From positions 57,414,001-57,478,000 of the forward strand of contig OZ076409.1 of assembly GCA_964187785.1 (NCBI GenBank): a DNA stretch of 64,000 nt. The letters are read 5' to 3'. Position 1 is the first letter of the stretch; each line of letters opens with the position of its first letter. The stretch comes from Amphiscolops sp. MND2022 (Eukaryota). The position numbers and the translations under genes were made by a program. The notes beneath the pieces were generated by a model. It ran no database searches, was not told the DNA's origin, and saw only the letters and a program-made list of their open reading frames with translations. Shown piece after piece: positions 1 to 54,834 of this stretch.

Positions 1-2533
1 CACTGTAGGGACTGTAAGGGCTTCCATCCACTAGCTGCACAGTTTTGGCGCTACTACCAGTACAACTGACAAGAGCGGGCTTGGTTGAGATGGCACCCAT
101 GATGTATGACACCAAACTGATCTCAGCATCAGTTTGGCCCTGTATCCTCCCGGTCCGCTTGAGGAAGACCCGACACAGTTCGCTGTCTCGCCAGTATCGT
201 ATGAAGATGAGAACGAAGGCACCATCATTCGCAAATTCGATCGAGTACTCTCAATTGGAGTTTACTTGGGAGGCAATATCACAGATGATCTCGTGGAACA
301 TGTGATGGAACAATACCTGAAACAGAAAGACGAAGACGGTTACCACTGGATACCACCTTGAGAAGCAGAGTAGACTACTTCTAAGAAATAGTAAAAGTTT
401 ACTTACAGTCAAGCGCTCTTTGCTCCAGTTGAAATCAGTAAACAGAGCCTGGTGGTTCACGATGACCCCCACGTCACTCCAGAATAACTTCAGCACTTCA
501 AGATCGCCATACGAAGGGAGAAATCGGCCCAGTACTGACAATTGGATGCGAGCTCTGCTATCGGCCGATGAAGCCATGTAGTCCATGCCAGACATGTACT
601 CGTCATAGAAGGGAAGCTTTTGCCCGCTTTCTATCAGCTCAACATCAATAAAGTTTGGCAGCTCCAGTTCTAAATGGTAAGGGGTTAAAACCTTCCCGTC
701 CTTTCCTCGCACTTGGTGAATCTTGTTTTTAGTGACCGGATCGATTTTGTAGAGGTACTCGTACCTCCACCTTTGGTCTTTCCTCAGATGTTTTTCGGTG
801 GAGTGGTGACGCAGAATTTCCCTAGCTCCTTTCCCTTAGATGGAAATATTGGCCTTACAAACTTGGCAATAAAATTTGTATTTGTTCCACCTGGGGTCTA
901 CTGGCCCAGAGACAAAGGTTCGCGTCCACTCCATCCCCTTGAAGTACGCTTCCTTCATGATTTTGCAACTTCGGGTCACTTTTCGTCTTGCCCCTTGGGA
1001 AGCGGAACTCGTTGCTTGTCGCCCTCGCTTGCTAGTGGTTCGTTTGGAGCGTTCCTGCATTCCTTCTGCCTTCAAGGAAGCCAAAGTTTGTCCCCCGGGA
1101 CTGTCAGCGCAGTACTCGAGTGCTAGAGACCCTGAGTCCACTGGGCTATAACTTGTGCGCTTTGTGGAGGCACTTTGTGGAGGGGGAGCAATACCATCAT
1201 GACTGGGAGCTTCAAATGAGTACCCAATGCTGGAAAATTCGTCATCACTTTGTATAGCTCCGCTTGTGTCGCTAAAACGACCGGGAGTTTCGCTCCTAGT
1301 TCGCCGCTTTCCAAGCCCACTGGGTTCTGTCGAGGTCAAAGTTTGCAGGGATCCTGGTCCCAGATTCAATTCACTGGCTCTCTTAATCAGATCTTCAAGC
1401 GCACCATGAGCCGTCCGAACAGTCTCTTCTGCCACAACCTTCAGAACGCTGCTGATTTGGTCTTCTGTGAAAGCTATAACAGGGTGTCCTCTTGGAAGGC
1501 TTGAAGGTTCGACGTTGGCAAAGTACTCTTTGATTAGGGCCCGGCCACTTGACTTGAGGAAAGAGCTGTGATTAGTACCCTGTGTGACTACCGGTGCAAA
1601 GGCGCTATCTAAATCACCGGACCCAAGAGGGACCGCATGCCGCTTCAGATTCATGGCTTGACCTATAGTAGATCCGCCAGGATTCGTGGTAGACTCAACG
1701 TCAGTTTCTCGACCAAGTTCCGACTCGCTGTAAGTTGACGTTAAACAAGCAGCTGTATTGGAACGCTTGGCTCCAGGGCCAAATTGGGTTGTTCCAGTAC
1801 TAGTGGACGGAAGGTCATGGAGACCAGCTTTGGGAACCGGCAAAACTTCGAAGTTAGAAGAACTTTCCATTCTGGGCCTTTTACTAATCTCTTGGTTTGC
1901 CTTGTCACCTGCAGGGCTGGAAGCAGTTAGTGGCGGTTCGAGGAAAGTTACTATTGGATTCGGCAATTCTTGATCAGTAAAGTCAGAAAGCACGTTCAAC
2001 CCAGGAGTAACACACAGTTTTCCGCTTTCGCTCGCCTTTAGCAAAGAATTTGTCTCACTAGGTGCCCCTTGTGTGAAAGTTTCATCTCCTAGACTCATCA
2101 TCTTGCGTGCAAAATATGCTTGGACGCTCTCTTCTGAACTACTGGCGTCGGTCGCTAGCAGGTTGATTAAGGAGGGAGAGTAATCTGGCGATCCTGGCAG
2201 CTGAGATTTTGGGTCCACTTGGGTGGACGATTCTGGCGAGTTTGTCCCTTTGCAATCTTGCTCCAATGAGGCGTGAGAAGATGCTTCCTCAATTATTTCA
2301 ATCCCAGGCGTTAGCAATCTAAGCGGTCCTGGTGAAGGCGTAGTAGGACTGGTTACAGTGGTTTCTTGAGCTTCTAGACAATGAGTCTCTTCAGCGGCAG
2401 GAGGATTAGTGATCATTGGTGTTTCTCCGTTACTGTTACTCTCACTCTCAGTTCGAGTTGGTTGGCCGTTTGATTCTTTGCCTAAACGGAAAGAAATAAA
2501 TTCGGGCGACTCACTTCTTGCAAATATATCCAT
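1..2533 (-). pseudogene. Antisense cargo gene of element A: Ser/Pro-rich N-terminus, BED-like zinc finger, hAT-like domain; spliced, with in-frame stops
   Basis: ORF 836-2533 ends FYCQVCKANISI* and continues in frame as GKGAREILRHHSTEKHLRKDQRW into ORF 251-712. GT..AG intron 406-317 (90 nt). Second stop at 251-253, then EYSIEFANDGAFVLIFIRYW. Confidence 0.7.
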
Positions 2534-3697
2534 CTTGCCGCATTTTAAAACTTCCGGAAGTAAAGCTCAACTAATTCAACAGCTTTTGAAAATATTTCAC
2601 GATGGTGGAAGTAAAATTAGTCAAACCTAAACCCTGTTCAAGTTTAGTCTAGTCAAAACTCTAAAAAAACCAACCTGACGTTATTCCCATGATAGGAAAG
2701 CGGAATTCCTCAGACTCAACTATTTCGGTGAGATTTAGCTCTGTAGTCCTTTGGACTGGGGGACACAAATGTCTGTTACTTCCAAAGAGGTGAATATCCA
2801 ACTTCTTCCTTTTCCCTTCTGTAGCTGCTGCGACTCACAGGCAAGAAGTAAATCGGGGAATTCAAGTAGCAATGTAATAATTACACAATTCAATAGGAAG
2901 AAGGTGAACGCGTTGCATAAAGGCTAGACACAGAAACATATATAATGCTATATAGTATGCATTAACTTGACTTTCTTACTCTACTCGACTAAAAGGATAG
3001 TTTACCAAACGATTATTACATTATTCAAAAAAGTCGGTCATTAACTTTGTTTAAAGAGGACGTCGTGGCTTACCCATTAGTTCTTTCTCTCGTAATTATT
3101 CTTCACCTATTCTTCACACTTCCATACAATTATCTAATTAGTTTTTTACCATGAATGGAACCTGCCAGTGAAATTCACGCTCATTATTTCGCTTCCTAGT
3201 TTAGTTCATTTCATGAAAATTGCTTCGATTAGGGTTAAAACTCCATTTTCATTCATCATTTACCAAAATTTTCTTCATTTATTTATCGGAATCACCCTAA
3301 TGGTTGATTCGGTTGATGTAGCTTCGTGGACCGAAGGTCTTTGATGGTGGAAATATTTACTGACAGTTTACTTGAGTTAGCACTTAACTCACTCACTAAC
3401 TACTGTTAAGTGTTTGTGTAAACAACTTACAAGTCCCTCAAGGACCAATTAACATGAAATTTACCTCAGTTGTTACTTCTAGAAATTCCGTAAAATTACA
3501 AATATGGAATGTTTGGCAAGAATTTAGAGAAAATGAAAAACGGTTTCCCCGCTGGGGATTCCCGCGAAAAGGGTGAAACCACTAGTCCGAATAACTAGAA
3601 GAAAATCATTCAGTCAAATTTCAAAAGCCAAACCAGTTGACTACTAGCAAACCTCAAAATTGCCAAGAAAATCCTCCTTAGAAAATATAAATCTCAG

Positions 3698-4519
3698 ATG
3701 GGAACTCAATTCACAATTGATGAATTGGCCAAATGTTTGGTCAGCCCAGCCTACTTCTCTTCAGAGGAAGAGGAGGATATGGAAGTAGACATCCTGTCTG
3801 TGTCACCGCAAGGGACCGAACGTCACTTGGACGACAGTGACATAGAAGTCATCGCCTGTTATGGCCACGTGCCAATTGCCCCAACTAAACAGAATGCCAC
3901 ACGCAAGATGACTACGGACCTCTCTAGTTGCGTGGACGACGGGTTGCCCGAGTTCCCCTGGGACGACTTTTCGGACTTCTGGCCTGAAGATTTCAAAACA
4001 GCAATAGTCGAATTAGGAACTGGCCCAGACGCAATCGGCAGAGAGAACAATTGTCCAATCAACCAGTGCTCAAAGCTTGTCCCTCAGGTGGACACGCCGC
4101 TTTCTCCACCTCTGTGCGAGCAAGGGCCCAGCTATGGTCGTTATGATTACGCTGGACCCAATGTGACAGATTTTACTGTGCCCGTAAACTCTCACATTCA
4201 GGGGATTAGTGTGCGAATTGGAGCAAACTGTGGTGAACCGAACGCTGCAGCTTATGGAGATTGCATTGTGTGTGGCAGATCATACGAACAATTCCGCGAG
4301 ACTGCAGTCCTGACGTACCTTGAGTCGACTACAAGACGAGGCGAAACGCATTACGATCAACAGAGACGGAGAGATGCTTACTTAGCTGGAATGAACCAAG
4401 GGACAGTACTTTTGGTCCCTAGGGGAGTGTCGCAGGCTGCCGCCTGTGACGGGAATTATTATCAAATTCCCCAAGAATATGTAGAATCCAACCCCCCACC
4501 CGGAGTATTGCCAATTTGA
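3698..4519 (+). CDS. Small cargo ORF of element A (273 aa; acidic N-terminus, CxxC motif) overlapping the 3' LTR start
   Basis: Intact ORF. C-terminal GDCIVCGRSYE...GET...AYLAG...GVSQAAACDG aligns with GNCHWCGRTYD...GET...AYLDG...GLSQPRACVG read from elements B and C. Confidence 0.7.
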   Translation: MGTQFTIDELAKCLVSPAYFSSEEEEDMEVDILSVSPQGTERHLDDSDIEVIACYGHVPIAPTKQNATRKMTTDLSSCVDDGLPEFPWDDFSDFWPEDFKTAIVELGTGPDAIGRENNCPINQCSKLVPQVDTPLSPPLCEQGPSYGRYDYAGPNVTDFTVPVNSHIQGISVRIGANCGEPNAAAYGDCIVCGRSYEQFRETAVLTYLESTTRRGETHYDQQRRRDAYLAGMNQGTVLLVPRGVSQAAACDGNYYQIPQEYVESNPPPGVLPI

Positions 4520-6078
4520 AAGACTTACGGTAAAACAATTCATAACTATGTTTAATCTTATCCCAATAGTGCTATTTTATATTTTTACCGTGGCGGACCT
4601 GTGGTCCACACGGCTACATGTTAGTTTTCATTTTTACCTTACGGGAATATACTTAATTGATGAGTCCTGTGCCTGTTTGATTGATTAAATGAATTTGTAA
4701 TATAGTCAATTGAATGTAAAATAATGCGTACAATGCTTGCTGAATACTAGGAAACCTGTTCAAATGAACGCTTGTTGACGCCCAGCGTACGTACCGGCCT
4801 TATTTAAATAAACCAATCAGAGTGCTGTACATTCTTATCATTATTATTGCTGTAGCCACGTGGACCGAAGGTCTACCGTGGTGTTATTAGCTGCCAATTA
4901 GTCGATGCTATTATGTTTACTGTAGCCGCGCGTACTGTCAGTCCGCGACGGTTACTACTATTTAGAGCTGCAATTTAAATAAACTGATGTAGTTACTCGG
5001 ACCTTAAGTCTATTAGTACAGTAATAATGGACGATTTGTTTGTTATGATACTTGTCAGACTTGAAATATTAAAGTAAACATGTAACTATCCAAAGCAAAA
5101 TGTGCTAATTTTAGAACTAATATCACACTTACAGACCATTGGTCAATCCCTCCATTTTACCCTGATGCTATATTTAGCTGTAATTTGATGTAGTAATATT
5201 GACGTCATGTATCAAAATATAACCCGGGAGCTATTATTAGTACCATGACCAGCATAATTTTGCGGGTCATGCAGTGTGAAGTATATATAGCGGGGACCCG
5301 TAGGCCCCAGGATGATTCTTTCTGATTTCATGAAACTATCAACTATATACACTGCTGATTCAATTTGTTACGTTACGAGACTTATTGGAATAATAGACCG
5401 TTTGTCAATTCAATATTAATCTCCAAAGTTTGTTCAATGACATCAACAAGGAGACAGAATGCCAAAGAGAGACGCTCTGGGCAACTGGACATAATGTCTG
5501 ATGTAAAAAATGTTGATATAATGCTTGGAAGTTACTCTAGATGTGATGAAGAGAATAACATTAGCGAAAAAGAAGGGAATTTGGACTCAGGGTCTAGTAG
5601 ACCACAACAAAGTTCAAACGATATAGGAGAAGATTTCAGATCTTTACTTAATACCAATAGTAGGGAAAACAGCGAAATCACAATTGAGACCACTAGGTTG
5701 ATTAATGAGGAAATTTCAAATCAAATGTCTAGAAGACTCAATGAGGTCAAAACTAGCTTGAGTTCTCAAGTCCAGGAAGCTATCACAGCTGCAATAACAA
5801 GTACAGTGCTTCCGGCTATTCAAAATACGCTAGAAACGCAGGGGAGACTTGATTTCACCATGGTGGACCGAGGGTCCAACGGGCCACATCCGAGCCCAAG
5901 GCCAACGATTTCACCGTAAGGGACCGAAGGTCCAGTGGGCTACAACGGAACACCGAAGTTGGAAATGCTCAGAAATCGTGGGAAAATCGTCCCAGAACTT
6001 GCTTTACACAGGAAAATACTAGACTGAGGTCTAGAGAGGGTTCAACAGACTCTAATAATAGTGAACAAATTCACGACA
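4428..6078 (+). repeat. 3' LTR of element A (about 1.65 kb)
   Basis: Starts TGTCGCAG after the purine tract and ends ...TTCACGACA (or 2 bp later), similar to the ...ATTATCACA end of the B/C LTRs. Contains a gag-leader-like ORF (MTSTRRQNAKERRSG..., in 5365-5919) as the B/C LTRs do. The partner LTR is outside the window. Confidence 0.6.
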
Positions 6079-7131: not shown

Positions 7132-8621
7132 TGTGATAATCCTCTTCTGTGCGATCCTCATTTATGACCACAGAGTCATTTAAATCAATGTTTTGTATGC
7201 TCAAAGGTTGCATTGGCGTTCTAAGTTCGTTTAAATTAGATGGCCTGAAAGGATTATCCTGTATCTCACATTCTTGATTTTCTGGTTCAGATGCGTTTTC
7301 TTCACCGTCTTCATTACTGGTGTATTTCGAGGTTCCTGCTTTGGCAGTGTTTTGTTCTCGATATCTTCTGTTTGGTACGGACTGTGTCCTTCTGTTATTT
7401 TTCATCTCTTTCAGTATTTTCTCTAATTTTTCATCCATTTCTTTTCTTAAGTTTGTTACTTCTTTATTCGTTTTATCTGTTATTTTTTGGGTCCAAATTT
7501 GCATTTCGTTTCCATATTGTGTTCCGCTATCTAGAGCTATTTCTTCCTCCCTAACTGAACTAACGTTTTCAAAGTTACTTAAAGTTTCAATAACAGTTTC
7601 ATTACCTTGTGATGTCTCTATTTCTGATGCGCTCAGCTCTCTCTCAAGTGAGGGTGATTGTCCTCGTCTAGATCTCCTATTTCTCTTGTTTCCCATTTTG
7701 GCCAGATTAAAATGCAATGTTGGAGAGAAGAATTTTAATTAAACTTGAGAAGCAAAGTGAAATCGGGTTGAAATGAGATTGAAGAAAATGTGCATAACGT
7801 TGAATTATCGAAGTTGAAACAAAGGTTGTGAAGATGAAAAGAGAGGTCTGATCAGTCTGGAAGTTTTCTGTTGAATGAATTTTATTGAGTTTCTTACTCT
7901 CCTTTTTGATTTGGGCTAAATTTAGCAGCATGACAACCAATTTTTGGAATGTCACGGTCACATCACGATTATGTAATTACTAAAAATAGTACCCAATCTG
8001 ATATAAAAATAGGTATGTAAGTTACATCACTTCTATAAATAGATTCCTGCATGACAAATATTTTCCTGCGTTTTGATTGGTCATCACACTAACTGTACCA
8101 ATCCGTTCATCGTTAATGGGAAAATGTGGCAACACGTAGTATGACTCATATGTAGTGCAAGTATTAATTCCAACGTATTACTGCATGCGTGATCAGATTG
8201 TTATGATGAATCATACTATCAAATGTCATGATTAAAAATATTAAAAATGTGAGGTTATACTGCAATATGCTGCAAACTTAGTAAAGCAATTCAATTCAAA
8301 TACTTAAGTCAGTATGCGTTAGTGTTACATAGAAGCCACGTATAATTTATTCTTTTCACAAGAATTCGCTTTAAACAGTATTATGCGTCAAATAAGTTAT
8401 CACCATGTAAAAAATCATTTATGAATGAGTGTTGTTTTACCAATCTAGCTAGCAACAATAGCAAACAAATTCAGACATAGCTGATAATCAAAAGTTATGT
8501 ATAAATCCATACAATATAAGTTTCAAGAAGTGATGAGTTGTCTCTGAATTCACTGCAGATGGGTGAGTCATTTGCCTTCAATGCTGCACCGCGGATCCAA
8601 CGCAAGCTCTAGGCTGCGACA
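7132..8621 (-). repeat. 3' LTR of element B
   Basis: Direct repeat of 13082-14577 with roughly 30 differences counted by eye. Confidence 0.95.
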
Positions 8622-10484
8622 GGCCAGCATTCTTGAAGTAAATGAGTGCTGCCTCGAACCCATCTAGATAGGCCCGTCATATGATGTTTCTATTTCTCAC
8701 TGTCTCGCCTGGGTATTCAGTCGTAGCTGTATAGGCCGCCAGAGCATCAAGAGCAACTTCGTCGTAAACAATTCTCGATGTCATCTTTCTTTTAGCTTGC
8801 AATTTTCCCGGCGATTTCATAGCAGACTCAGAGTTATGCTCCTGTTTTTCATTTAAATAGCTCCATAACAAAATACACTTTGTGATTTCCGTTTATGGTT
8901 ACAATCGTTTCAATTATCCCAACAAGATGAAATTTCTTTTCGCAGCTTCCATATATGGCGAATAGAAGCGTTGACTTTTCCATTCAAAGTGACAAAGGCA
9001 CACTAAATTATTATAAACAAATATGAATGAAGCTTTTCATGATGAATTTTAACAACCCGGATTTTATTTTTTGAATTTTACAAATTTTATGAAATTTTAC
9101 ATGCAATCTTAAATAAAACAACGAGTAAAATAGAAATGAAAGTTTATGGGGGCAAAGTTTCTGTATAATTGTGTATTTAAACACTACAGAGTTTCTCAAA
9201 AGTTTAGGTTCACACTCATTTACTTTCTATATCCATCTCATATTGTTCATTTCAGCATCATGATGTCAACTGAATGATACACTGTTATCTTCATAGCAAT
9301 AAAGCGATGCATGGGGTCATGAGATGCTGTTTCTTTTTAGGTCAACACCAGTTCAAGTTGTACTGCAAGATGCATTTCACTTTGCGCTTTTCTTCGAACT
9401 GCCACTAGGGGGCGACGCATCATGCGTATGTAAATGAATTCGGTTATGCTGTATTAAGTACCAATTTCGCTGGCAGGTTTGATCGGTTTCCAAATATTTC
9501 AGCCAATCAGCGCGCAGTTTTTGCGCAAATATGTTAATGTAATTTGTTGAACCGGAAGCCACGCCGCATCTTTTGTTTGTTTATCGTATCAGTTTTGGTC
9601 AGTTTCAAAGTCGTTTGTCGTCAAATTTCTCTAAATTCTTCAATTCATCAAGTTTCCATTTTTATTTTGTAATCATAGTTTGTAGTTCAGCTTTCATTTC
9701 CAATCAGCAATTTTCTTTTGAATTCGTAATTACAATTCCATTTTTATTTCTTGCTTCACTTGGTTGTTTACCAAATGGTGCGTTCGCGTTCTTCTTCCCG
9801 CAGGAAGGCAACCCCCCGCAGAAGAGAGCTGCAGTTGCTAGGAATCTCCGGTCATCCACTACTACTACATCATGCGGTAAGCTTGAATTTTGGTTGATTT
9901 TTCTGATTGACTCAGACAGTATTTTTTTTCTTTGTGACGTCACGGATTTTAAATGCAAGTTGGCCAGACTCACATTTTGGTGTCGACTATCTTTTGATTT
10001 GTCAACTTCCGGTTTCCGAGTTTTGGGCGGAAATAATATTTTTCCTGTTACTGATTTCTGTTATCGACATCAGTACAATGCAGGATTTTTGTTTCAGATT
10101 CTTCCGCAGCTCAGCCGCGAAGTAGAGTTTCTAAACCTTCTGATACCAGCAAAGCGCCCGTAACACAACAAACTGTTTCCTGGAAAAATTTTCCCAGCGG
10201 ACAATTCCGGATGATCTTCAACTTCCCCCAAGCTTGACCCCTGTTGTGAGTCCTGTGGTGCAGCGCCTGACTGAAGTCCAGGTTATCCCTGATTGCGTGG
10301 TTTCGAGTTCAAAACAGAAGAAAAAGAGTAGTGCTAGTGTCCTCTAGAACAGACATCATCTGTTCCCGCAAAGGATGGTTTTCTGATTTGTATCTATATA
10401 CTTTTTGTTTGTATTTACTATTCCATTTTAAAAGAAAAGAAGAAGATGAGAAGTATGAGGACTTGAGATTTGTTAGTCTTTGTT

Positions 10485-13400
10485 TGTAATATCTGTATGA
10501 GTCTGAAATGTTAGGGTTTGGGTAGGGTCGTAAATTGTATTTTTCACCACGTGTATTGTTAGGGTTTTTTTCTTTTTGAACCTCATCATTTTCTTGATTT
10601 TCATCTGTATTTCCTGAGGATTTTTCTGCATCAATAGTAGGGTTAGGTTGTAAGTCTTGTTGATTATCAATTGCATCAATTTCATTTTCTGCATTTTCGG
10701 TTGGGGTTTCTTCATTAGGAACTGCAGTTTGTTCTACCGGGGCTCCCCTACTGTTTTTTGAAATTTCGAGGGAATGTGGGCGGTTTATCGGTACATATTC
10801 TTGTATCTCATCTTGTTCGTTATCTGGGAGTTCTGTGTCAAATGGATCTGTACCAAAGTTTGTATCCCATGTGTGGGCATACAGATCATCGTGTGTTACT
10901 ATTATGTTGTCATCTTTTTGCCAATCTGTTTCTCCGATAAAATTATCTGCTAGTGGTGCACTAGGTGTAAATTTTCTCAAACGTATTCAGTGTAACAGTT
11001 GTGATTTGTTTGTCCCTATTCTTCGTACAATGTAGTTATTGTTAGGTAGGACATTTTTGACCCTGTAGGGATCTATCCAACGGAATTCTCGGAACGGAAT
11101 TTTCGTTGCTTGTGTATCTGCTTTTGGGTTCAGTTTGTAGCAATAGTCTGTTGTAGTAAGTGGTGCTTTTGCAAGTAGTGGTGTTGATTGTCGTGTTGGA
11201 AGATTGTGTTCTGGTTTCAGTTGCATTGATAAATGCGGAAAAGTTAATACTCCTTGTCGAATGTCGAAAATGGCATTGTTCCTTTTTAGGAAGCAAAGTC
11301 CAATTAGAGGATTGGGTAAGACTTTCATAACGATGAAATTTTCTTTGAACTTAACATCTGCCACTTCAAATGTTAGGCAGACTGTTCCGATTGGTGTTTC
11401 CAATTGTCCGTTTGCTACCATTATTTGAAAATTGGGTGCGGGACCTGTGTCTGTTATTGCTTCCGGTGCAAGGAGTTTGATTTTATTTAAATCTTGTTCC
11501 GATATTGCGCTCGTGAGAGCTCCAGTATCGACTAGACCGTCAAGTGTAAGCTTTTCAAAATCCATTGGAAAATAATACATATGGCGTTTGCTTTTTAGTG
11601 TCAGGTTGGTTGATAGAAGAAGCATTGGTATATCTATTTCTTTTATTAATTATAACATGATTTTGAATTTCATCATCTATGAGGGGTAGGTTTTGTGTTG
11701 ATGCAGGTTCGATTGGTACTTCAGATGGGTCTTGTGTTTGGAGAGGTTCGGGTAAATTTTGTGGTGAGGTTTCGTGTTCGAATTCATACTAATTGTTAGA
11801 GATTTTTTCGTTATTTTTGTTATTTTTGTCAAAAGTTGTGGTTGTATATCTATCAGGGGCGTCTCTGTATATTTCATACGAATCGTCTTCTGATTCATTT
11901 TGTTGATTTTCTTGAGTCTGAGATTCAGTGTTATGTGTGAAAGTGTTTGTTTTTATTGGGTGAGGAGTTGGATGCTGCCAGTCATCTTTCTCCTCTGGTT
12001 TTGTGGCGCGTGGCCTTATTAGTTTAAATCCTTCGATGATGAAGGTTGTTGACGGGGTGCTTTCGGGTTAATATGTTTGTTGGAGTTTTTGTAATTTTCA
12101 CTGAGTTTTTTCTGTGCTTCAGTTAGTGTCCACTTTGGGGGGTGGTTTTCCATATTTGCTCCGAAGTAGCATTGTGGTTCCTCATGTCCTGGTGCGTTAC
12201 AATGCGTACAACGCATGGCCTCAGTGTCTTCTTCCAGTTTACGACGTTTTGCTAGTTTAGCGCTGTCTGCTGCCTTGTGCCCCGTGTTTTTACAAAAACG
12301 ACAATGGTCATCTTGCAATGTTTTGTTGGGCACTATTTTTGGTGTTTGTTGCTTCTTTGTTGTTGCAGTTTTCTGCTGCGTTGGTTTGTCTTCTGCTTGT
12401 TTGTTTATTACCGCCATTTGCGTTTTAACGCCAGCGTCTTCTGATTCAAGTCCGTTTAATTCCATCTCACGTTCGAGATGTCGGATTATTTGCTCGTATG
12501 TTCCATTCTCAAGATAGGCTTGATTAATAGAACGTTTCAAATGTGGTGGCATTTTTGCATATAATAGACTTTTTATCATTTGTGATGCAATGTCACGGAA
12601 AGCTTTTTCGGCGCTTTTTTGTAATTCTTCTAGGAAGTCTGGTAGTTTCTGGCGTTCCGGGTCAAAAACCAAGCGACATATTTTCTCCTGAACACTACCA
12701 GTATATCTTCAAGTGTGGTTGTTGGTGTTCGTTGAATATTTTTGAATGTTTTCAATGCTAGTCCACGCAAATGTGCGTGAAAATGATTTATTTTCATTTC
12801 CTCAGTTAATGCGGGTTGCATTCTGAGTGTTGTGTGGAAAAGATCTTCGAAATATTCGAATTTCTCGTTCTTTTCCAATTTCCCATTGAAAGTGAGTGTA
12901 TTTTTTGGATGAAAGAGTGATGGTTGTGTGTTGCGGCTTGCTAGTTTCTCAATAGCCATTGCTATTTGATTAACGGGGTCTTGCTGAATATTGAGTGGTT
13001 AAGCAATGAGATGTTCATTGTGTGTTGTTGTTGTATTGTTTGAGCTTTGACGATGAAGAGGTTTGGTAGCTCCTGTCACCATGTGATAATCCTCTTCTGT
13101 GCGGTCCTCATTTATGACCACAGAGTCATTTAAATCAATGTTTTGTATGCTCAAAGGTTGCATTGGCGTTCTAAGTTCGTTTAAATTAGATGGCCTGAAA
13201 GGATTATCCTGTATCTCACATTCTTGATTTTCTGGTTCAGATGCGTTTTCTTCACCGTCTTCATTACTGGTGTATTTCGAGGTTCCTGCTTTGGGAGTGT
13301 TTTGTTCTCGATATCTTCTGTTTGGTACGGACTGTGTCCTTCTGTTATTTTTCATCTCTTTCAGTTTTTTCTCTAATTTTTCATCAATTGTTTTTCTTAA

Positions 13401-13650
13401 GTTTGTTACTTCTTTATTCGTTTTATCTGTTATTCTTTGGGTCCAAATTTGCATTTCGTTTTCATTTTGTGTTCCGCTATCTAGAGCTATTTCTTCGTCC
13501 CTAACTGAACTAACATTTTCAAAGTTACTTAAAGTTTCAAAAACAGTTTCATTACCTTGTGATCTCTCTATTTCTGATGCGCTCAACTCTCTCTCAAGTG
13601 AGGGTGATTGTCCTCGTCTAGATCTCCTATTTCTCTTGTTTCCCATTTTG
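10485..13650 (-). pseudogene. gag-protease-integrase C-terminus remnant of element B
   Basis: ORFs 12999-13667, 12630-12959, 12019-12672 (CRFCKNTGH, CTHCNAPGHEEPQC), 10987-11625 (GLVDTGA ... FREFRWIDPYRV) and 10309-10980, broken by stops and frameshifts. Confidence 0.9.
13065..13081 (-). promoter_or_regulatory. Primer binding site of element B
   Basis: TGGTGACAGGAGCTACC directly follows the LTR-terminal CA. The equivalent in C is at 32963-32979. It resembles tRNA-Leu-type PBS, but the tRNA is not established. Confidence 0.75.
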
Positions 13651-14577
13651 GCCAGATTAAAATGCAATGTTGGAGAGAAGAATTTTAATTAAGTTTGAGA
13701 AGCAAAGTGAAATCGGGTTGAAATGAGATTGAAGAAAATGTGCATAACGTTGAATTATCGAAGTTGAAACAAAGGTTGTGAAGATGAAAAGAGAGGTCTG
13801 ATCAGTCTGGAAGTTTTCTGTTGAATGAATATTATTGAGTTTCTTACTCTCCTTTTTGATTTGGGCTAAATTTAGCAGCATGACAACCAATTTTTGGAAT
13901 GTCACGGTAAATCACGATTATGTAATTACTAAAAATAGTACCCAATCTGATATAAAAATAGGTATGTAAGTTACATCACTTCTATAAATAGATTCCTGCA
14001 TGACAAATATTTTCCTGCGTTTTGATTGGTCATCACACTAACTGTACCAATCCGTTCATCGTTAATGGGAAAATGTGGCAACACGTAGTATGACTCATAT
14101 GTAGTGCAAGTATTAATTCCAACATATTACTGCATGCGTGATCAGATTGTTAAGATGAATCATACTCTCAAATGTCATGATTAAAAATATTAAAAATGTG
14201 AAATTATACTGCAATATGCTGCAAACTTAGTAAAGCAATTCAATTCAAATACTTAAGTCAGTATGCGTTAGTGTTACATAGAAGCCACGTATAATTTATT
14301 CTTTTCACAAGAATTCGCTATAAACAGCATTATGCGTCAAATAAGTTATCACCATGTAACATCTGGTAAATCATTTATGAATGAGTGTTGTTTTACCAAT
14401 CTGGCTAGCAACAATAGCAAACAAATTCAGACATAGCTGATAATCAAAAGTTATGTATAAATCCATACAATATAAGTTTCAAGAAGTGATGAGTTGTCTC
14501 TGAATTCACCGCAGATGGGTGAGTCATTTGCCTTCAATGCTGCACCGCGGATCCAACGCAAGCTCTAGGCTGCGACA
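13082..14577 (-). repeat. 5' LTR of element B
   Basis: Direct repeat of 7132-8621, flanked by the TSD on the outside and the PBS on the inside. Confidence 0.95.
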
Positions 14578-19794: not shown

Positions 19795-20692
19795 TTTGAT
19801 AATCTTCCTCTGCGCGGTTTTCATTTATGATTACAGAGTCGTTTAAATCTATGATTTGTATATTCGAAGGTTGCATTGGCGTTCTAAGTTAATTCATATT
19901 AGACGGCTTGAAAGGATTATCCTGTATTTCATTTTCCTGGTCTTCCGGCTCAGATGCGGTATCTTCATTGTCCCTGTTGTTTGGTTTTTGAGGTTCCTGC
20001 TTGAGGGTATTTTGTTCTTGATATCTTCTGCTCGGCACAGATTGTGCTCTTCTGCTATCTTTCATCTCTTTCATCTATTTCTCCAATTTTTATTCATTTC
20101 TTTCCTCAGGTCTGATAATTCTTTATTTGTCTTTTCGGTTATTCTTTGAGTCCACACTTGCATTTGAGAACCACTTACTACCGCCTATTTCTCCTTCCCA
20201 AACCGAATCAACATTTTCAAAATTACTAAGAATTTCAATAGTAGTTTCATTACATAGTGATGTTTCAACCTCAGATGCGCTCAAGTTTCTCTCAAGTGAG
20301 GGTGATTGTGCTTGTCTTGGTCTTCTATTTCTTCTATTTCCTATCTCAGCCAGATGAAAATATTGTTTGTTGGAGGGAAGAATTTTTAATAAATTGAGAG
20401 ACAAAATAGGATAAAGTCAAACGAGCCGAGAACGTCCAAAGTCGGCGCCATATCTAAGGCTCAAAATTGAAAAAGGGGCACTCTTCGGGCTTTGAGAAAC
20501 TCCAGCTGGTTGCAAAAAATGAAAAAAAATAGAAGGGGGACCCTTTGATGACATGAAAAACTTTCCCAAAAAAATTTTTCAATTAGATTTTTGAACGGTG
20601 TCACAGTGCCGAAAAATATAAAAGACTTTATAAAATAGACTTTTGCCATCATTGCTGCACCACGGATCCAACACAAGCTCTAGGCTGTGACA
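19795..20692 (-). repeat. 3' LTR of element C, partly deleted and interrupted by a HINE-like fragment
   Basis: Homologous to 32980-34106. About 430 bp are replaced by 20421-20635. Confidence 0.85.
20421..20635 (-). mobile_element. Truncated Helentron-associated (HINE-like) repeat
   Basis: AGTCGGCGCCATATCTAAGGCTCAAAA and AGTGCCGAAAAAT are shared with the element at 46530-46908. Confidence 0.7.
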
Positions 20693-21593
20693 GGCCAGCA
20701 TACTTGAAGCAAATGAGTGCTGCTTCGAACGCACGCGATCTAATGTTTCTGTCTCTTACTGTCTCGCCGGGATATTCAGTTGCGGTTGTATAGGCTGCCA
20801 GAGCATCTGAGCAACTTCATCGTAAGGTCTACCACACCAGTGTCAGTTCCCCTGAACGTGTGACATAACAGGAGTGTTAAGCTGTCTTCGTAAGGGGTTC
20901 TTCTGTTGCTGAGTAGAATTTTCACATCGGGCAGCACCTACATCAAACGTCTCCAGGTTGCTATGAGTGCCTTGGGTGTCCAGGTATAACTGACCAATGG
21001 CGTTACAGTAATATGCAACATTAGGAAGCTCGCTTGGTTGTAATATTCCGGCATTTATGTCATATGGGTACTGACCCATACCTTGGGTGACTAATTTTTG
21101 GTAAGTTCAATTGAACTCTCGGTACGCTGTATTGATTTATCATGGGTGTCTGCATTTTTCTCTCCCATTATACGGGTGAGCATAGTTTGGTTGAGGGATC
21201 TCATGCGGTATTACTAAGGGTGTAATAGGTATAGGCCTGATTGGTCCATTCACTTGGTCGTTACTGGGGGATTAATAACATTAACGTCAGATCGAGTGGG
21301 TATATGCCTTGTCGGTCTTTCAGCTTGCATGGGCGGAACTCTCAGCACAGGTCCACCGTAGTTGTTCCTCGGGACATTAGCAAATTTGGCATTTGTTAGT
21401 AAGTCTCCACTGTCACTCTTGATTCAAAGAACGAAAAAGGTGAGATTTTAGGTAATTTGGTATGTTCCGAGATCATACTCAGCATTTCCCTTTCAATATC
21501 AGTGACGGTGATATCTATTACAGAGTCTTCTCCTTTTTCAGATTCACTTACAGCGATCAATCTGACAGCGTCTTCGTTAACAAAGGCTGTCAT
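20649..21593 (-). pseudogene. Small cargo ORF of element C (homolog of 3698-4519), decayed
   Basis: N-terminal SESEKGEDSVIDIT resembles SSEEEEDMEVDIL. C-terminal GN*HWCGRPYDEV...YPGETVRDRNI...GLSQPRACVG; the duplicate near 34250 keeps CHWC. Confidence 0.65.
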
Positions 21594-22865
21594 GGGGTCA
21601 TTAGGTGGTCCCCAAATTCTAAATCTCTGGTCTATAGGTTCTGAGTTAGATTGTTCAGTCACAAACTCTCCCCAGAGTCGCTAGAAATGTTCAATAATCC
21701 GGGGGAGTTTGTAGAGACGGATCGCATGTCTTCGTCGATTGTGAAGAGATGAGAATTTTTTGGAGGTCTATGGTCCATCCGAATTTGAAATTATCAACTG
21801 ATTCGTTTCGTGAATATTCGCAGAACAAACACTTTTCGCTTCTTTTCGGTTGGTGTGTATTTTCCCGGGGCTTAGGGGTGTCGTAAACAATTCTCGATGT
21901 CATCTTCCTTCTAGTTTACGGTTTTTCCGGCAATTCCAAAGCAGACGCAGGGTTATGTTCCTAATTCTTCATTTGAATAGCTCCATAACAAAATATAATT
22001 CACCTTGTGAATTTCATTTATGTACTGATCGCTTCACAACAAAATGATATTTTTCTTCGTAGTTTCCGTTTATGGCGGATAAAAGCGTTAAATTTTCTGT
22101 TCAAAGTGACAAAGGCATAATAATTGACTGTAAACAAATATGAATGAAAATTTGCATGACGGAGTTTAACAACTCATTTTTTATTTTTGAATTTTACAAT
22201 TTTTTTTTGAAATTTTCATGTAAATTTAGTTGGGATGAATAACATCATCAGAACTAATGCACTAATACAAATACATCTCGAGTTATTTATAGGCATAAAG
22301 TTACAAGGGTAAAACATGACTATCTCAAATTTTCTTGTTTCATGTTGTTTATTTCAGCAACAGAATGCCATTTTCTGGGTACGGAGTTATTCCATGGTGT
22401 CAAAACGATGCAGGAGGTTATGTGATGTTTTTCATTTTAGGTCAAATACCATCTCACGTTGTACTGCAAGATGCATGCAATTTGCTCATTTCTTCATACA
22501 GTCACTAGGGGGCGGCACATCATGCGTATGTAAATGTTCTAAGCCGCACTGTTCTAAATACCAATCTCGCTGGCAGGCAAGCTTGGTTTCAAAGTATTTC
22601 AGCCAATCAGCAATGAGCATTTGCGCAAATATGCTAATTGCGTTTCATCCAGCCAGAAGCCACGCCATATATAATTTTGTTTGTTTGTAAAGTTTGGTAA
22701 TCCAAAGTCAATTTTCACAGTTTCACAGTAATTTCCACCAACATCTCCTTGCTACCTGATTTCGTATTTCTGTCTGTAACGCACAATCCTTTATTTTTCA
22801 TTCTCTTCATTGTTAATTTCAATTGTTAAATAGTTGCGCCTTTCCATTTCCAATTCTCCTCCACT

Positions 22866-25800
22866 ATGGTTCGTTCAAGGAGCGTTTCTAACCGGCGTTC
22901 CAAGATTTCCGAGGGCAAATGGACAGCTTGAACTTCCTTGGATCAGACACCAGATACAGCAGTTACATTGACAGGTAAGCTTGGGTTTATTTTCTTTGAT
23001 TATTCATGTTGCTTTCTTGCCTTTTTGAGACGTCTCAGATTTTTAAAATACGAGTTGGCCAGACTCATCTTTCCGTTGACATATCTTTTTGATTCATCAA
23101 CTTCCTGTCTTCGAGTTTTTTGAACGGAATCACTAACTTCCTGTTCCGGTTTCTAGCATATTTCCATTCAAATTTTGTTTCAAATTCTTCCCAGCTACAC
23201 CATCAAAAAGCAACGCCAAATGTTCTAAACCACGAAAGGCTACTAGTGTCCAAAAAACTCTGTTAGAGTGCAGCTACAATCCTCGACTTTCTCTCGACGA
23301 AGATGATCTCCCTTCTGCTTTCGTTCCTCAAGTCCTGCTAGAGGTAATTTTGACGAGCTTGTGGTTGGTTTACGGGACAGCACCACTTTAGATGCAAAAT
23401 AAGCGGACGCAATTGAAGATATCCAGATCAAATCGACGTAAAAAACAACGCGCCCAAGGTAACGGGAGCTGTTAACGCTCCTGTAGACGGGGTTCCACCC
23501 GGACCATCATCACCACCAGTCACTGCTTCCAATAAATTTATTTATCGCGGGGAAAAGAGCCCTCCAACAACACAATCTGGGAATGTGCTAGCTTCAAGGA
23601 AAGGGTCTCCTTTAAAAAGGTATCTAATCAAGGAAACAGATCGTCTAAAGGAACAAGAAAAAGTCGACACTAGGGCTGCCACCCCAGAGCTGATTAAAAG
23701 CACCGAAATCCCTTCAAGCCCTCAAAGAAACTGGAGCACCCCGATTAGAGAGACTATTAGTTGAAGCAGCAGAAGAAGCCGCCACAAGTCAATTTCATCT
23801 CAGTCCCACATTGCATTGATGGTTCCCAACTCACCTGAGACTAGTGACAAAAACGGACGGAAAGCACGTCCCAAAACTGAGACTTCTGCCACGGCAAATC
23901 CACCAGATGTGATTGGGGATGATTATCAGCAACCCAGTTCAGACTCAGACAACAGCTTCTACTGAAGAAATCGTAGCTACCTCTGAGAAACCTCTCAGGA
24001 AACGCAAAACGCAGCAGAAGTGTAGTCCAGTCAGAAAACGGGCTAAGCCTCAACACATGCTGGCCGAATGGATGTACGATAAGTATCCCATCCTTGGGTT
24101 CTTTGCCACAGCGCCTTCTGACGCGGCCAGCCATCCGAACAAGTGTCGTTGTCGCAATTGATTGGTGCAACTTTCTCTGAAGACCAAAGGTCCTCTGAAA
24201 ATGTTACGACACTATCGGACTGATGCGCAATTGGTACGGGAACACAGGATCCGTGTGGAGACTCCCGAACTTGCACTATTCGATAAACAGTGTAAAGAAT
24301 TGAATGGAATTGCCTTGAAATACGCGAAGGAGAGAGCTAATCGGGAGTACCCGATTGCCCTCAAACTTGGCGATTAGTACCTTTGTGTTGATCAGCAAAC
24401 ACAGCCGGAAGGAACAGAACCAGAGAATCCTGACAAAGACACATTGTCACCCTTAACCCTCCTCAAGTTTGGGTTACGACATGGCGGACATTTGGACTCT
24501 CTGATAGCTCTCTGGCATGATCTAATCACAGAAACTAGGACTTCAGAATCCATCTCACCACATGATTGGAGGCCACACAGAATCTTGGTAGGTTGTTTTG
24601 GTAGTCGCTTTTGTTTGCAAAAATACTAGACGTTGAAGGAAATAATTTCTTTGCAGGCTCTTCTGACCCACATGTTCCACGAGCTCTTGTCGTACAGCAT
24701 CACCTCTATTGAGTCTTCAGGCAGCTACTCCCTTCAATTGGCATTCACAGTGCAAGAAACTCGGCTCTTTGTGAATATCTGGTCTGGAAATCCATTACAC
24801 AGCATGTATTTAGCCGTCCTCCCTGGCCGCCTTACCAATCAGTCTGATTTGATTCCGATTATCAGCAATTTCTTCGCCTTGCTACACTAAGAGGCGCACT
24901 TGATCTTCCTATCTGGGTTTTCCCAACGTCTTGTTTGGACGATTTCCCGGGTACTACCCTAGCAGAAAAGGATCTGCACCACGCCAAAATTTGACCCCGA
25001 GGATTTAGAAGAACTGTTATTAGTCCCCACAGTGCGCATTCTTGACAGGTTCGACTTCAGAAGTGTCCTGGAATTCCTGCTTCTTCGACTGAGATCCGCC
25101 TGTGGGAGTTCCTGGCTATCATCCCTTCCAACTTTCGAAAAGGTGTATATCTTGTATTCTGTTTTTCAAACTATTCTGTTAAAATATTTGCTTGGTGAAA
25201 AAATTACTATTTCCGTATGAAAACGGTCAGTATTTCTCCCGTCTGTAGATTTTATTCTCTCTCGTGAGATTTTCATTCTTTTTAGTAGAACAATTCTTTC
25301 TTCGCATATGACACTATGCAAATATCTCTTTGTTGCATATTTGAACTTGCGGCATAATGCAGCACAATTGGTCTTTTCAATCAATTTTTTCGTAATTGTT
25401 TCTTCTTTGCTAATGATTACGTAATTTGGTAGATTGAAAGATGAGTCACTGTACGATATTTGTTTCAATTTTCTGCACGTGAATAGGATATTTGTGTTGG
25501 ACTGCTTCGTTGATTTTTGGTACGTGAACATTTTGACTTCATGATGTTACGTAAAAGAAGTTGAATTTTTTTGTGTTGTTATAGCTGGCGTCCAATCTTG
25601 ACTATGATCTAAAACAAGCTGTGGAATTTCTCGATCAGTTAATCCAGAACTGGAAGCATGTCACATCCTATGTGCGGAACAGCAGAAGAGTAGCTGCTTA
25701 TCGCTCTCATTTTCAAGAAGTTTGTCCTCTTATTTTCTTCCTTATCGGGTATTCTGCTCCTGGTTGTTAAAAAATTTCGCGTTTCCTTTTAGCCATCTGG

Positions 25801-27192
25801 GATGGATGACATCATCATCAAGGATCGTGTGCTGGTTGTACGACTGTTTATCATTCGCCACATTCTAAGCCAGTGTTAGTATTTTTTTTCATTGTTTCGC
25901 TTCGATAGATATTACCTTAGTAAATTTCAATGCATGGCACAAAATTCCTTCTATTCTAATGGTTCCTCCATAGTGGTTTCATATCATACTTCATTGGTTT
26001 CTTCTCGTTTCACACAATTCAGCTTTCAAGGAAGTGGAAACGAGTGTAGCTGGAGGATTTTGTATCTACAACCAGTTCTGTGTTTTCGTGTACACACTGA
26101 TGCAAACCATTTTTCCTACATCCTTCCTTGGGAGCATCAACAATTGGGAGAGCTACATGCAGCTGAACATGAGTGAAAGCACCCTGCCTGTCAAAACAGT
26201 TGATGAATTTTTGCAGTACAAGAACCTCTCCGATTAGCTGTACAGGAACAAGAACCCTACCCCTCGAAAGTTTGTTGAGCAAGCTATATCTTTCTATCGT
26301 TAGTTTATAAAACTGTTGTTTTCGTGTGAAGTAACTACATCGTCATTTGCTCGTGGGCTGTCATCGTTTGACGAGGCTGGGATCCGTGATGGAGAGGAGG
26401 CACAGTACGAGGACTCTATTCAGTTCCTTGCTGGGTACCTCGTTCAACAACGATGGATATCCCCCCATACCAAACCCGTTGTGATTAGTGAGTTCTGCTC
26501 TCCCGTCACTAAAATCCGAGCCGACAAAGTCCATATTTCACAAGAATTGGTCAGCTTCATTTCCTGTTACTATGATCTTCAGTGTAGGGTTAAATTTTCC
26601 CGCATCTTTAAGATTGGCAGTGAAACTCTGAGAAGCCCTTGTTTTCCTCCCCTACACTTTACTGTATCTCTGCCTGGTTTAAAGTCTACCAAAATAGAGT
26701 TTTCTTCTTGCGTGAGACGCCTCCAGTGTTCCCTTAGTTCCATCCAAAAAGTAGAGAGACTTTTCTTGTCTCCGACTGCCCTCCCTCGCACATACGAGCT
26801 CCTTAATCAAGGGCCCGGGCTACTTTTAACGCGCAAGTTCTCAGTGTGGAATTATCTGAGTTCTACTCCATTTTTGAAAATTGGCCTGCTATCTACTTTG
26901 GAGTCCTGTTATGCCGAGAATGTTGCTGTTGACAGTCGTACTTGGATTACTGGAGAGAGAACCCAGCCTTTGTTCTAGCCGTACTAGCAGTATTGCCAGT
27001 TCTCCTGTAAAGTCTTCTTCTTTAAAGTCTTCTCCTGAGAAAACCAAGCAGCCAGCTACTACAGGTTCCGTTGTTGCCCCAGCAGTTCGCAGTTTGATTG
27101 AACTTCCTTTCCTGACTGCCTCAACTTCTACTGTTCCTTCCACTGGTGATAAGAAGAAGAACAAGAACGGAAAACCCACTGTGCCTCAGTAG
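22866..27192 (+). pseudogene. Antisense, multi-exon cargo gene of element C (BED-like finger plus hAT-like domain), decayed
   Basis: Putative ATG at 22866 with donor at 22975 (also in B: ATG 9775, donor 9877). Finger region HPNKCRCRN*LVQLSLKTKGPLKMLRHYRTDAQL. Intron 24588-24656, then ALLTHMFHE...SYSLQLAF...LFVNIW. Probable intron about 25144-25584. Ends with 26316-26978 and a Ser/Lys-rich tail. Confidence 0.65.
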
Positions 27193-27336
27193 ATCATTGG
27201 ATTTAGTCAAACTTTGTTTACGCCAATGACTTGACTTAGACTACAACTTTTCTGCAATTGTCATTGCTCTTTTCTTCATTTTTGTTGATTATTTAACCGG
27301 AACAAGGGAGTTGAATTTGTATTACTTTTGTTTTTA

Positions 27337-33300: not shown

Positions 33301-33545
33301 CTGATACTTCTTTATTCGTCTTTTCAGTTGTTCTTTGAGTCCACACTTGCATTTCGTCCTCGTTTCGAGAAACACTTACTAACGCTGTTTCTCCTCCCCA
33401 AACCGAATCAACATTTTCAAAATTACTAACAATTTCAATTGCGGTTTCATTACATTGTGATGTTTCAACCTCAGATGCGCTCAAGTCTCTTTCAAGTGAG
33501 GGTGATTGTTTTTGTCTGGGTCTTCTATTTTTTCTTATTTCCCAT
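27337..33545 (-). pseudogene. gag-pol of element C
   Basis: Fragmented ORFs: gag; protease; RT (KIDCSQAYH, LAQGL, QYVDDI); RNase H (MSDASF, FTDN); integrase (QMDI, IDVFSRY, C-terminal WIGPYKV). Confidence 0.92.
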
Positions 33546-34106
33546 CTCAGTCAGGTGAAAATGTTGTTTGTTGGAGAGAAGAATTTTAATTATGTTGAGA
33601 GACGAAATAGGATAAGGTCAAATACAGAGTTGGAAAACTTGTATATAACATCAAATTATCACCAAAAATAGGAAGTGAGAAAGTAGGTCTGAACAGTGTG
33701 GCAATTTTTTTTGTTGTGTCCTTTTTTTCGGGCGCTTACTCTCCTTTTTTAGGGTCTAAATTTAGCATCCTGATCCGTCACAAGTCAGTATGCATTAGTA
33801 GTTATCAGGGTTCTCGCATAATTTGTTCATTTCCTCGGAATTCACGTGAAGTACTGTCATATGTTAAATATGTTAACATAAAGCAACTTTTCATGAAATA
33901 TTTATGAATGAACATTATTTAACACGTGTCGTTAACAACAATAGCAATTAAATCCGATTATCGCTGTCATTCCAAAGTTATGCACAAGTTTACTAAAAAT
34001 GAGTCTTATGAAGTAGTGAGTTTTCCGTCTGATTTCTCCGTAGATGGGTGAGACATTTGCCATCATTGCTGCACCACGGATCCAACACAAGCTCTAGGCT
34101 GTGACA
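32980..34106 (-). repeat. 5' LTR of element C
   Basis: TGTCACAGCC...ATCACA on the minus strand, followed by PBS TGGTGACAGAAGC; related to the B LTRs. Confidence 0.85.
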
Positions 34107-34669
34107 GGCCAGCATTCTTGAAGCGAACGAGTGCTGCTTCGAACCCACGCTATCTTATGTTTCTGTCTTTTACTGTCTCGCCGGGATTTTCAGTTGCCGT
34201 TGTATAGGCTGCCAGAGGATCTGAGCAACTTCATCGTACGTTCTACCACACCAGTGACAGTTCCCCTGAACGTGTGGCATAACAGAAGTGTTAAGCTGTC
34301 TTCGTAAGGGGTTCCTCTGTTGCTAAGTAGAATTTTCACATCGGGCAGCACCTACATCAAACGTCTCCAGGTTGCTATGAGTGACTTGGGTATCCAGGTA
34401 TAACTGACCTTTAGCGTTATAGTAATAAGCAACATTAGGAATCTCGCTTGGTTGTAATATTCCGGCATTTATGTCATTTGGGTACTGACCCATACCTTGG
34501 GTGACTAAATTTTGGTAAGTTCAATTGAACACTCGGTACGCTGTATTGTTTTATCATCATACCCATTATACGGGTGAGCATAGTTTGGTTGAGGGATCTC
34601 ATGCGGTATTACTAAGGGTGCAATAGGTATAGGCCTGATTGGTTAATTCACTTGGTCGTTACTGGGGGA
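34107..34669. repeat. Duplicate of the internal segment 20693-21271, placed outside the 5' LTR
   Basis: Collinear match from GGCCAGCAT to GTTACTGGGGGA, followed by a second AGGCTGTGACA terminus and the TSD. Confidence 0.9.
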
Positions 34670-54832: not shown

Positions 54833-54834
54833 TT

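Follow-up and report, generated by a model that had tools for sequence, protein, structure and literature searches.

Three related LTR elements and their accessory genes

The window, by which we mean the whole 64,000-nucleotide stretch analysed here, is AT-rich animal DNA that holds three related LTR elements (A, B and C). Element A lies on the + strand and is visible only from its internal region onward, its 5′ LTR and target-site duplication (TSD) falling beyond the window. The last gene of A, an intact accessory open reading frame (ORF), occupies the env position of this Ty3/gypsy element, and its final 30 codons fall within the 3′ LTR. The main features are:

251..2533, −: second accessory gene, C2H2/BED-like finger, with a stop at 836 in A; it diverges from the accessory ORF
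2534..3697, no strand: AT-rich spacer between the two divergent genes; its counterparts in B and C are ~74-79% alike
3698..4519, +: accessory ORF, last gene of A, 273 aa, open frame
3740..3859, +: acidic, low-confidence N-terminal region with a decayed first site (AYFSSEEE) and a reversed site (DSDIEVI, residues 46-52)
4094..4111, +: [ST]PxSP motif, residues 133-138
4262..4426, +: core outside the LTR, with C189-x2-C192, helix 196-211, helix 218-233 with R224/R225, and A227-x3-G231
4421..4427, +: 7-nt purine run, the sole sequence at the boundary that resembles a polypurine tract (PPT); not conserved
4428..4451, +: first 24 nt of the 3′ LTR, a 10-bp hairpin with a 4-nt loop, read as VSQAAACD
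4428..6078, +: 3′ LTR of A (1,651 bp), its start placed by homology to B and C and its end by Gag homology
5437..6078, +: Gag N-terminus inside the LTR of A, with a frameshift near 5900 in this 3′ copy
7132..14577, −: element B, a deletion derivative without most of pol, TSD TCTAT
8766-8575, −: accessory remnant of B, the last ~60 codons with an in-frame stop
19795..34684, −: element C, a decayed gag-pol element, TSD AGTAG
~21778-20650, −: broken accessory gene of C, with SIM-like LLNISSDS and DSVIDIT
34672-34060, −: second 3′ accessory piece of C

Because the 5′ LTR and TSD of A lie outside the window, the LTR start at 4428 rests on homology. The 3′ limit comes from Gag: 114 Gag-like proteins align through their N-termini with the frame at 5437, the similarity to full-length Gag breaks off at ~6068-6078, and in 83 of the 114 Gag homologues the LTR end and primer-binding site (PBS) are read as xxDMVTG. 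The sequence from 4428 onward is thus LTR, and the 3′ LTR spans 4428-6078, encoding ~210 Gag residues. Judged from these frames, both LTR ends of A are protein-coding, with the accessory tail at the start and ~210 Gag codons at the end. Gag also begins inside the LTR at 13082-13646 and 32980-33550 (−). The PBS may be of a tRNA-Leu-like type.

Several features place the elements with Ty3/gypsy. Paired TG...CA LTRs, a 5-bp TSD and a PBS are present in B and C, and in A by homology; gag followed by PR-RT-RNase H-IN and a GPY/F-type integrase tail are seen in the frames of C, the pol of A being out of view. In this gene-order test, Pfam returned RVT_1, Integrase_p58_C, Ty3_capsid (E=4e-4) and a protease. 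The A-type Gag scores DUF1759 in Pfam, a domain that we assume to be Bel/Pao-associated, yet it aligns with the B and C Gag at 39-56% identity. Since these Gag proteins are clear homologues, we treat A, B and C as one lineage, and we rejected the idea, raised by DUF1759, that the accessory gene is cargo common to Bel/Pao and gypsy elements. By tblastx, the LTR of A had no similarity to the LTRs of B and C.

The LTRs of B (14577-13082 and 8621-7132) are 97.6% identical, and C retains gag and PR-RT-RNase H-integrase frames that are decayed and ordered as in gypsy elements. The preliminary description called the block of the accessory protein conserved; of the three elements, only A carries it whole. 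In B no more than the last ~60 codons survive, CxxCGR being among the parts lost, and the two C copies have in common a frameshift and the loss of 12 nt that takes out the Ala-Tyr-Leu stretch. The similarity between these copies, 92%, is close to the 90% of the C LTRs, so the lesions probably predate the insertion of C, which probably arrived with an already dead accessory gene. As B inserted or persists without most of the gene, and C probably inserted with a dead one, the gene is dispensable in cis. At 34051-34684 (−) in C, an 11-nt LTR start is joined to the second 3′ accessory piece, before the full 5′ LTR and inside the TSD; this arrangement represents a tandem that has collapsed or a product of recombination.

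Between pol and the accessory ORF lies an antisense gene with apparent introns. It has a counterpart in C at 22866-27190 (+) and a remnant near 9773-10330 (+). The antisense genes of A and C are homologous at 24% identity (E=2e-6) in direct blastp, the one comparison that recovered this; tblastx between A and the B and C antisense regions gave no similarity, and Pfam gave only a sub-threshold zinc-finger match. From the layout, the spacer at 2534..3697 is presumed to be a bidirectional promoter. We discarded a TATAAA at 3686 as a promoter element of the accessory ORF because it lies too near the ATG, and the CAG immediately before the ATG in A is absent from two metagenome loci that carry the gene (L001 and L002). 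TTTCCCGC-like sequences, presumably E2F-type, were seen by eye 120-200 nt upstream of the start codon in three intact copies (A 3540-3575 (+), L001 250-290 and L002 420-450). A motif that we take to be CTCF-like occurs only twice in the window, at 9402 and 22502 (+), once in the internal spacer of B and once in that of C, each time close to a CCAAT box; A has no match.

The remaining sequence holds several unrelated features. An apparently intact hAT DNA transposon at 56908-58793 (−) encodes a 533-aa transposase (DUF659, hAT dimerisation) and has terminal inverted repeats and an 8-bp TSD, CAAACAGG. Between B and C, an intronless gene for a rhodopsin-family GPCR of 614 aa (17159-19003, −), whose third intracellular loop is very long, is probably a host gene. 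A 132-nt inverted repeat at 6641-6905, 88% complementary with arms 1 nt apart, is MITE- or foldback-like, and 36633-41826 consists of ~2.7 kb tandem units, ~90% alike, with short decayed retroelement-like frames. At 52030-55250 (+), a strongly strand-skewed stretch that starts like a TG...CA repeat and holds an orphan ORF of 288 aa (53975-54841) is probably the 3′ portion of a further LTR family that carries cargo of its own.

Coding sequence across the LTR boundary

The LTR begins with TGTCGCAG/TGTCACAG, a start that is fixed in B by paired LTRs with the 5-bp TSD TCTAT on both sides and in C by the TSD AGTAG. The preliminary description proposed that these LTR-initial letters encode part of G-V/L-S-Q in A, B and C, and the reading frame is indeed the same in all: the V/L codon spans the boundary and S-Q follows in A, B, both C copies, L001 and L002. 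The accessory gene is joined to the LTR junction in all six DNA copies that include it. The same description placed a PPT at this boundary, which our comparison contradicts. The boundary purine run measures 7 nt in A, 5 nt in L002 and 0 nt in L001, B and the 3′ and 5′ copies of C, and no run of at least 8 nt occurs within 300 nt upstream of the LTR in A or in either C copy. Among 242 distinct junction-covering proteins, V/L follows a G residue in 194 and an A residue in 31, so that G-rich sequence is itself not a constant feature here. Known PPTs have no single consensus but are purine runs with rare pyrimidines at most (PMC3185511, in the text available). A PPT abutting the 3′ LTR, as expected of Ty3/gypsy elements, was thus not found at this boundary; this marks the lineage as atypical and does not exclude it from Ty3/gypsy. 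In a folding prediction for A (4398-4451, +), the 7-nt purine run is single-stranded between two hairpins (z -2.5, 70 nt).

The hairpin formed by the first 24 nt of the LTR is stable in the A-type copies A, L001 and L002 (z -3.6, -4.7 and -2.0). The peptide that it encodes, SQAAACD, is present in 170 of the 242 proteins. Among A, L001 and L002, third-position identity is 0.67-0.89 over the nine LTR codons versus 0.31-0.40 over the 55 preceding ones. T249 occurs in 10 of the 242 proteins, and five of the seven proteins with V247 also carry T249; together the two changes swap one stem base pair, although the five proteins may be one lineage. These patterns indicate that the invariance of SQAAACD largely reflects constraint on DNA or RNA at the LTR end. 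Of the earlier view that this block shows protein conservation across a PPT, the encoding of S-Q stands, whereas the conserved PPT falls away and SQAAACD is mostly a matter of nucleic-acid constraint. We rejected a conserved hairpin in B and C, in which the sequence differs and z is +1.2 and +1.4; their different LTR starts still encode S-Q-x3-C. Beyond the hairpin, Y255 and a terminal PGxLP are 75-82% conserved. C250 sits within the hairpin and may therefore be conserved for reasons other than zinc binding.

A conserved core and an acidic arm

A homologue search recovered 96 clusters among 411 candidates (1,191 sequences, all from ENA assemblies), with 283 family representatives at 50% identity, 150 of them listed. 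The exact sequence of the window protein was found in the searched collection, and relatives also lay on short contigs of other datasets, scattered over the tree. The family reaches down to ~26% identity with frames of 245-316 codons remaining open. In six large clusters, for each of which 15 of 40 members were listed, 58 of the 90 listed members differed from full length by at most 3 residues. Among 6,902 candidates, 0 were fused proteins of 554-2000 aa, which is weak evidence, and none of 101 pattern matches on viral contigs was confirmed.

The most conserved part of the protein is a nearly gap-free CxxC and amphipathic helical hairpin. Across 220 proteins, residues 189-251 show an insertion in 5 rows and a deletion in 8, and the cysteines are kept in 212 (C189), 213 (C192) and 216 (C250). 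In the 242-protein set, E216, R225, A227 and G231 are 92-95% conserved, with R224 at 87% and R225 at 92%. These 242- and 220-protein figures are unfiltered; the invariance of CxxCG in two of our alignments (A2 and A3) stems largely from the selection filter. Three pairwise comparisons among A, L001 and L002 over the 55 core codons outside the LTR gave pN of 0.34-0.41 and pS of 0.61-0.76 (Fisher p of 3e-5, 0.02 and 2e-5), with dS saturated or nearly so in distant pairs. Over 44 codons, B against the two C copies gave pN of 0.07 and 0.10 and pS of 0.28 (p 0.003 and 0.026), and the two C copies compared with each other did not depart from neutrality (pN 0.052, pS 0.028, p=1). On these codon comparisons, with pN below pS in five of six pairs, the core is under purifying selection.

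We next consider the structure of the protein. AlphaFold modelled the N-terminal two-thirds with low confidence (AF2 pLDDT <50 for residues 1-132), whereas residues 161-273, modelled with 74 sequences, had a mean pLDDT of 73. Two helices, at 196-211 and 218-233, are confident there, and the tail encoded in the LTR is weaker. The accessory ORF matched no Pfam family; across 51 members Pfam returned 14 scattered families, none in more than three members and the best at E=0.007. A profile search of PDB sequences gave only three matches at E~0.76, and Foldseek found none at E<=0.001 with the full model against PDB or the domain model against BFVD. VIA-align against 48,161 chains reached a best Z of 5.1 for generic helix pairs; the ESM Atlas had no usable match to the whole protein and a best of 0.78 for residues 180-273. 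These blank sequence and fold searches do not prove a new fold.

A homodimer was predicted for two copies of residues 180-273 with zinc, which scored 0.38 versus 0.00 for the best of three controls. In a microbial calibration, 21 of 30 solved pairs and none of 23 single chains scored at or above the mark for a dimer; among eukaryotes it was reached by 17 of 29 pairs, and by only one of the seven without an older solved relative. One of the three runs scored 0.00, contact agreement was as low as 3% and pLDDT fell to 46. The tightest contacts and the axis involve A227, Y228 and G231, with Y207, T211 and R224 also in the interface. The prediction made no use of the alignment, in which the interface residues other than Y228 are 82-95% conserved (A227 and G231, 95%). 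A core homodimer through the AxxxG helix is thus supported as a prediction that remains uncertain. The CxxC lies outside the confident interface. Potential ligands conserved in more than 30% of core sequences are C189, C192, C250, H166 (162 of 220, with 54 gaps) and, in part, C178.

Two known uses of zinc were set aside. In the zinc hook of Rad50, a CxxC has coiled coil on both sides and a pair of CxxC motifs makes the dimer; here Pfam matched this family weakly in 2 of 51 members (best E=0.007), no helix precedes the CxxC and the CxxC is not in the confident interface. The RING domain of SUMO-targeted ubiquitin ligases of the RNF4/ICP0 type has eight zinc ligands; the family conserves too few, and Pfam found no RING in 51 members.

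The N-terminal arm is acidic (24 D/E versus 6 K/R in residues 1-110 of the window protein), and a signal peptide is therefore not apparent, as judged from hydropathy and composition. The best 19-residue Kyte-Doolittle mean in the window protein is 0.65, with 2 of 44 members reaching 1.6, so no transmembrane (TM) segment is visible. We searched the first 80 residues for SUMO-interacting motifs (SIMs), defined as a hydrophobic core with at least three D/E/S on one side, in 44 proteins: 41 of 43 non-redundant proteins of at least 240 aa (two longer variants were dropped), the window protein and two more. The pattern was present in 37 of the 44, against a mean of 6.3 and a maximum of 15 in 1,000 composition-preserving shuffles; the sequences are related, so these are not 37 independent events. 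A strict SIM is absent from 7 of the 44, and a phospho-SIM-like pattern occurs in 19, against 0.1 in shuffles. The sites show the hXhh/hhXh core and the acidic or serine flank of SIMs and lie in a region of pLDDT <50, consistent with disorder. They also turn over between clades. In the 13-row clade of the window protein (support 97/96), 12 rows have a reversed DSDIEVI-type site and the first site is decayed; in the other large group, the first site (for example, IIISSDE) is kept in all 18 tested rows.

The [ST]PxSP motif, which the preliminary description did not mention, is present in 42 of the 44 members and is, we assume, a candidate proline-directed phosphosite. A conserved nuclear localization signal was not found; K[KR]x[KR] occurs in 5 of the 44, the window protein not among them. 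Myristoylation was rejected, as only 1 of the 44 starts with Met-Gly.

The preliminary description presented a novel accessory protein unlike env, with SIM-like motifs in acidic patches, and most of this is borne out: neither a signal peptide nor a TM segment is visible, no known domain emerged from Pfam, PDB or BFVD, selection acts on the core outside the LTR, and SIM-like sites are enriched at the level of pattern. Its further proposal, an action on chromatin or silencing, remains a hypothesis. Its two acidic patches fared differently. DSDIEVIA is conserved within the clade of the window protein, whereas the VDIL core of EEEDMEVDIL passes the SIM pattern in only 2 of the 44.

Possible roles of the accessory protein

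Extra ORFs after pol, and ORFs that run into the 3′ LTR as in nef and CRM elements, are already known, so the architecture is of a known kind; the accessory protein is a new family within it. Nef carries acidic and proline-rich motifs in a flexible arm, a likeness to the accessory protein, and has a conserved N-terminal Met-Gly myristoylation site. Met-Gly is rare here, nothing matches Nef in sequence or fold, and the SIM-like motifs and CxxC are features of the accessory family. Lentiviral nef is likewise a small non-env ORF that runs through att into U3 of the 3′ LTR (PMC11076291, in the part available); it spans a true PPT, whereas the accessory family has none conserved. CERV of the Caenorhabditis elegans element Cer1 is another accessory protein of an animal LTR retrotransposon, with a cysteine cluster, helical domains, a predicted multimer and phospho-regulation, but it has 517 aa, shares sequence with Gag and forms rings of at least 5; neither SUMO nor CxxC occurs in the available text of that paper (PMC10309623). 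By description, on which this comparison is based, the accessory protein differs in having 273 aa, lying downstream of pol and overlapping the LTR. The CR motif of CRM-clade chromoviruses also runs into the 3′ LTR, but as the integrase C-terminus of a plant gag-pol after a normal PPT, rather than as a separate gene in an animal (PMC3605345, in part). Non-env ORF3 cargo in bdelloid rotifers and the Burro domains of planarians are further additions to invertebrate gypsy-like elements; these are recognisable captured GDSL, DEDDy, MATH and BIR domains, whereas the accessory family has no recognisable source (PMC5408684 and PMC6431247, in the text available). VANC of plant Mu-like DNA transposons is a functional analogue, an accessory anti-silencing factor predicted to form a helical homodimer; it differs in belonging to a DNA transposon, deriving from MAIN and being DNA-sequence-specific, it showed no similarity in our Pfam and fold searches, and SUMO does not occur in the available text (PMC13547354).

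The first SIM-like site resembles the SIM of Daxx (IIVLSDSD) and that of PML (VVVI, then serines and acids), both strengthened by phosphorylation; in each, serines and acidic residues come after a hydrophobic core (PMC8616421, in the portion available). This is a likeness of motif only, the clade of the window protein using its reversed site instead, and the same portion of that review warns that many SIM pattern matches are false. The literature that we covered, in part as excerpts, held no match for the family, for SIMs that change position, for a tail encoded by a hairpin or for the lack of a PPT, and no SIM-bearing accessory protein of an animal LTR retrotransposon; repeat databases and supplements (for example, the repeat tables of PMC9911081) could hold an annotation.

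A gene that can be lost in cis and is retained by the lineage, and whose product joins a disordered SIM-bearing arm to a small core predicted to dimerise, is most simply read as encoding a trans-acting adaptor for SUMOylated nuclear proteins, and we give somewhat less than an even chance to a dimeric SUMO-binding one that counters host silencing. The accessory ORF would be a lineage-wide gene of these Ty3/gypsy elements, expressed from the internal divergent promoter, with a product that acts in trans in the nucleus. Its disordered acidic arm would carry a SIM with CK2-type serines and acidic flanks, the CxxC and helical-hairpin core would probably bind zinc via C189, C192, C250 and perhaps H166, and dimerisation via the AxxxG helix, as predicted, would present two SIMs. 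By binding or sequestering SUMOylated factors of silencing, or by recruiting activators to them, the dimer would then sustain transcription of the element family. SUMO is needed for piRNA-guided transposon silencing in Drosophila (10.1101/533091, in the part available). As the protein has no RING or other effector domain, the direction of the effect (anti-silencing, pro-silencing or other) is not fixed. A fuller version is doubtful: that the protein is a dedicated SUMO-pathway antagonist, a zinc-bound dimer with two phospho-SIMs working family-wide in trans, in elements that have packed their cis-signals into reading frames at the two ends of the LTR, with the accessory tail covering the U3 att and hairpin and with Gag covering U5 and the PBS, and that prime the plus strand without a PPT.

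Other roles have to be weighed against the SUMO-binding adaptor. The protein could instead be a Rev- or CERV-like RNA adaptor, in which a dimeric hairpin binds genomic RNA, possibly at the LTR-start hairpin, for nuclear export or stability, and the SIMs only place it in nuclear bodies. CERV, a multimerising, phospho-regulated, cysteine-loop protein, is needed for export of Cer1 genomic RNA (PMC10309623, in the text available), helix 2 averages 3.35 R/K in residues 218-226 with both arginines well conserved, and the A-type LTR start does fold stably. We nevertheless consider this unlikely: the mean net charge of the core is -0.4, R224/R225 fall within the predicted dimer surface, the LTR-start hairpin is not significant in B and C, and the transposition or persistence of these elements with a broken gene would require the function to be supplied in trans. 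The chance is smaller for a replication or integration cofactor in the particle or pre-integration complex, one that helps to define the plus-strand start without a proper PPT or tethers integration to SUMO-rich chromatin. The TSDs of B and C attest precise LTR ends though no PPT is conserved, PPTs elsewhere departing little from pure purine (PMC3185511, in the text available), and the gene is tied to the junction in every DNA copy that includes it; but no nucleic-acid-processing fold or motif was found, and RT/RNase H with local structure could recognise the junction alone.

A SIM dimer that recruits SUMO-dependent repressors, as a self-restraint factor that limits copy number or confines expression to particular cells, would have the same anatomy, and the best-matching known SIMs, those of Daxx and PML, belong to repressive factors (PMC8616421, in the portion available). 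It is improbable for a family so abundant (96 clusters with 1,191 sequences) and retained through deep splits; a benefit to transposition accounts for this more easily. That the frame lacks a protein function, being open by chance and through cis-constraints at the LTR end, would suit the broken copies in B and C and the most invariant block, which LTR DNA explains. Selection on the 55 codons outside the LTR, frames open to ~26% identity, the gap-free amphipathic core and the conservation of Y255 and PGxLP past the hairpin make it very improbable. An env-like or membrane-acting protein for cell-to-cell spread has in its favour the env position of the ORF, and is hardly credible for a protein with an acidic N-terminus, no TM segment, Met-Gly in one of 44 members and no env match in Pfam, PDB or BFVD (E<=0.001).

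Beyond the role of the protein, precise LTR ends without a conserved PPT pose a concrete question of plus-strand priming, and the CxxC and helical-hairpin core is a small domain without a catalogued family. The anti-silencing proteins that we found in the literature, where available to us in part, come from plant DNA transposons. Given the need for SUMO in piRNA-guided silencing, a SIM adaptor encoded by a transposon would counter that defence directly and, if true, might explain the rise of this lineage to many hundreds of copies.
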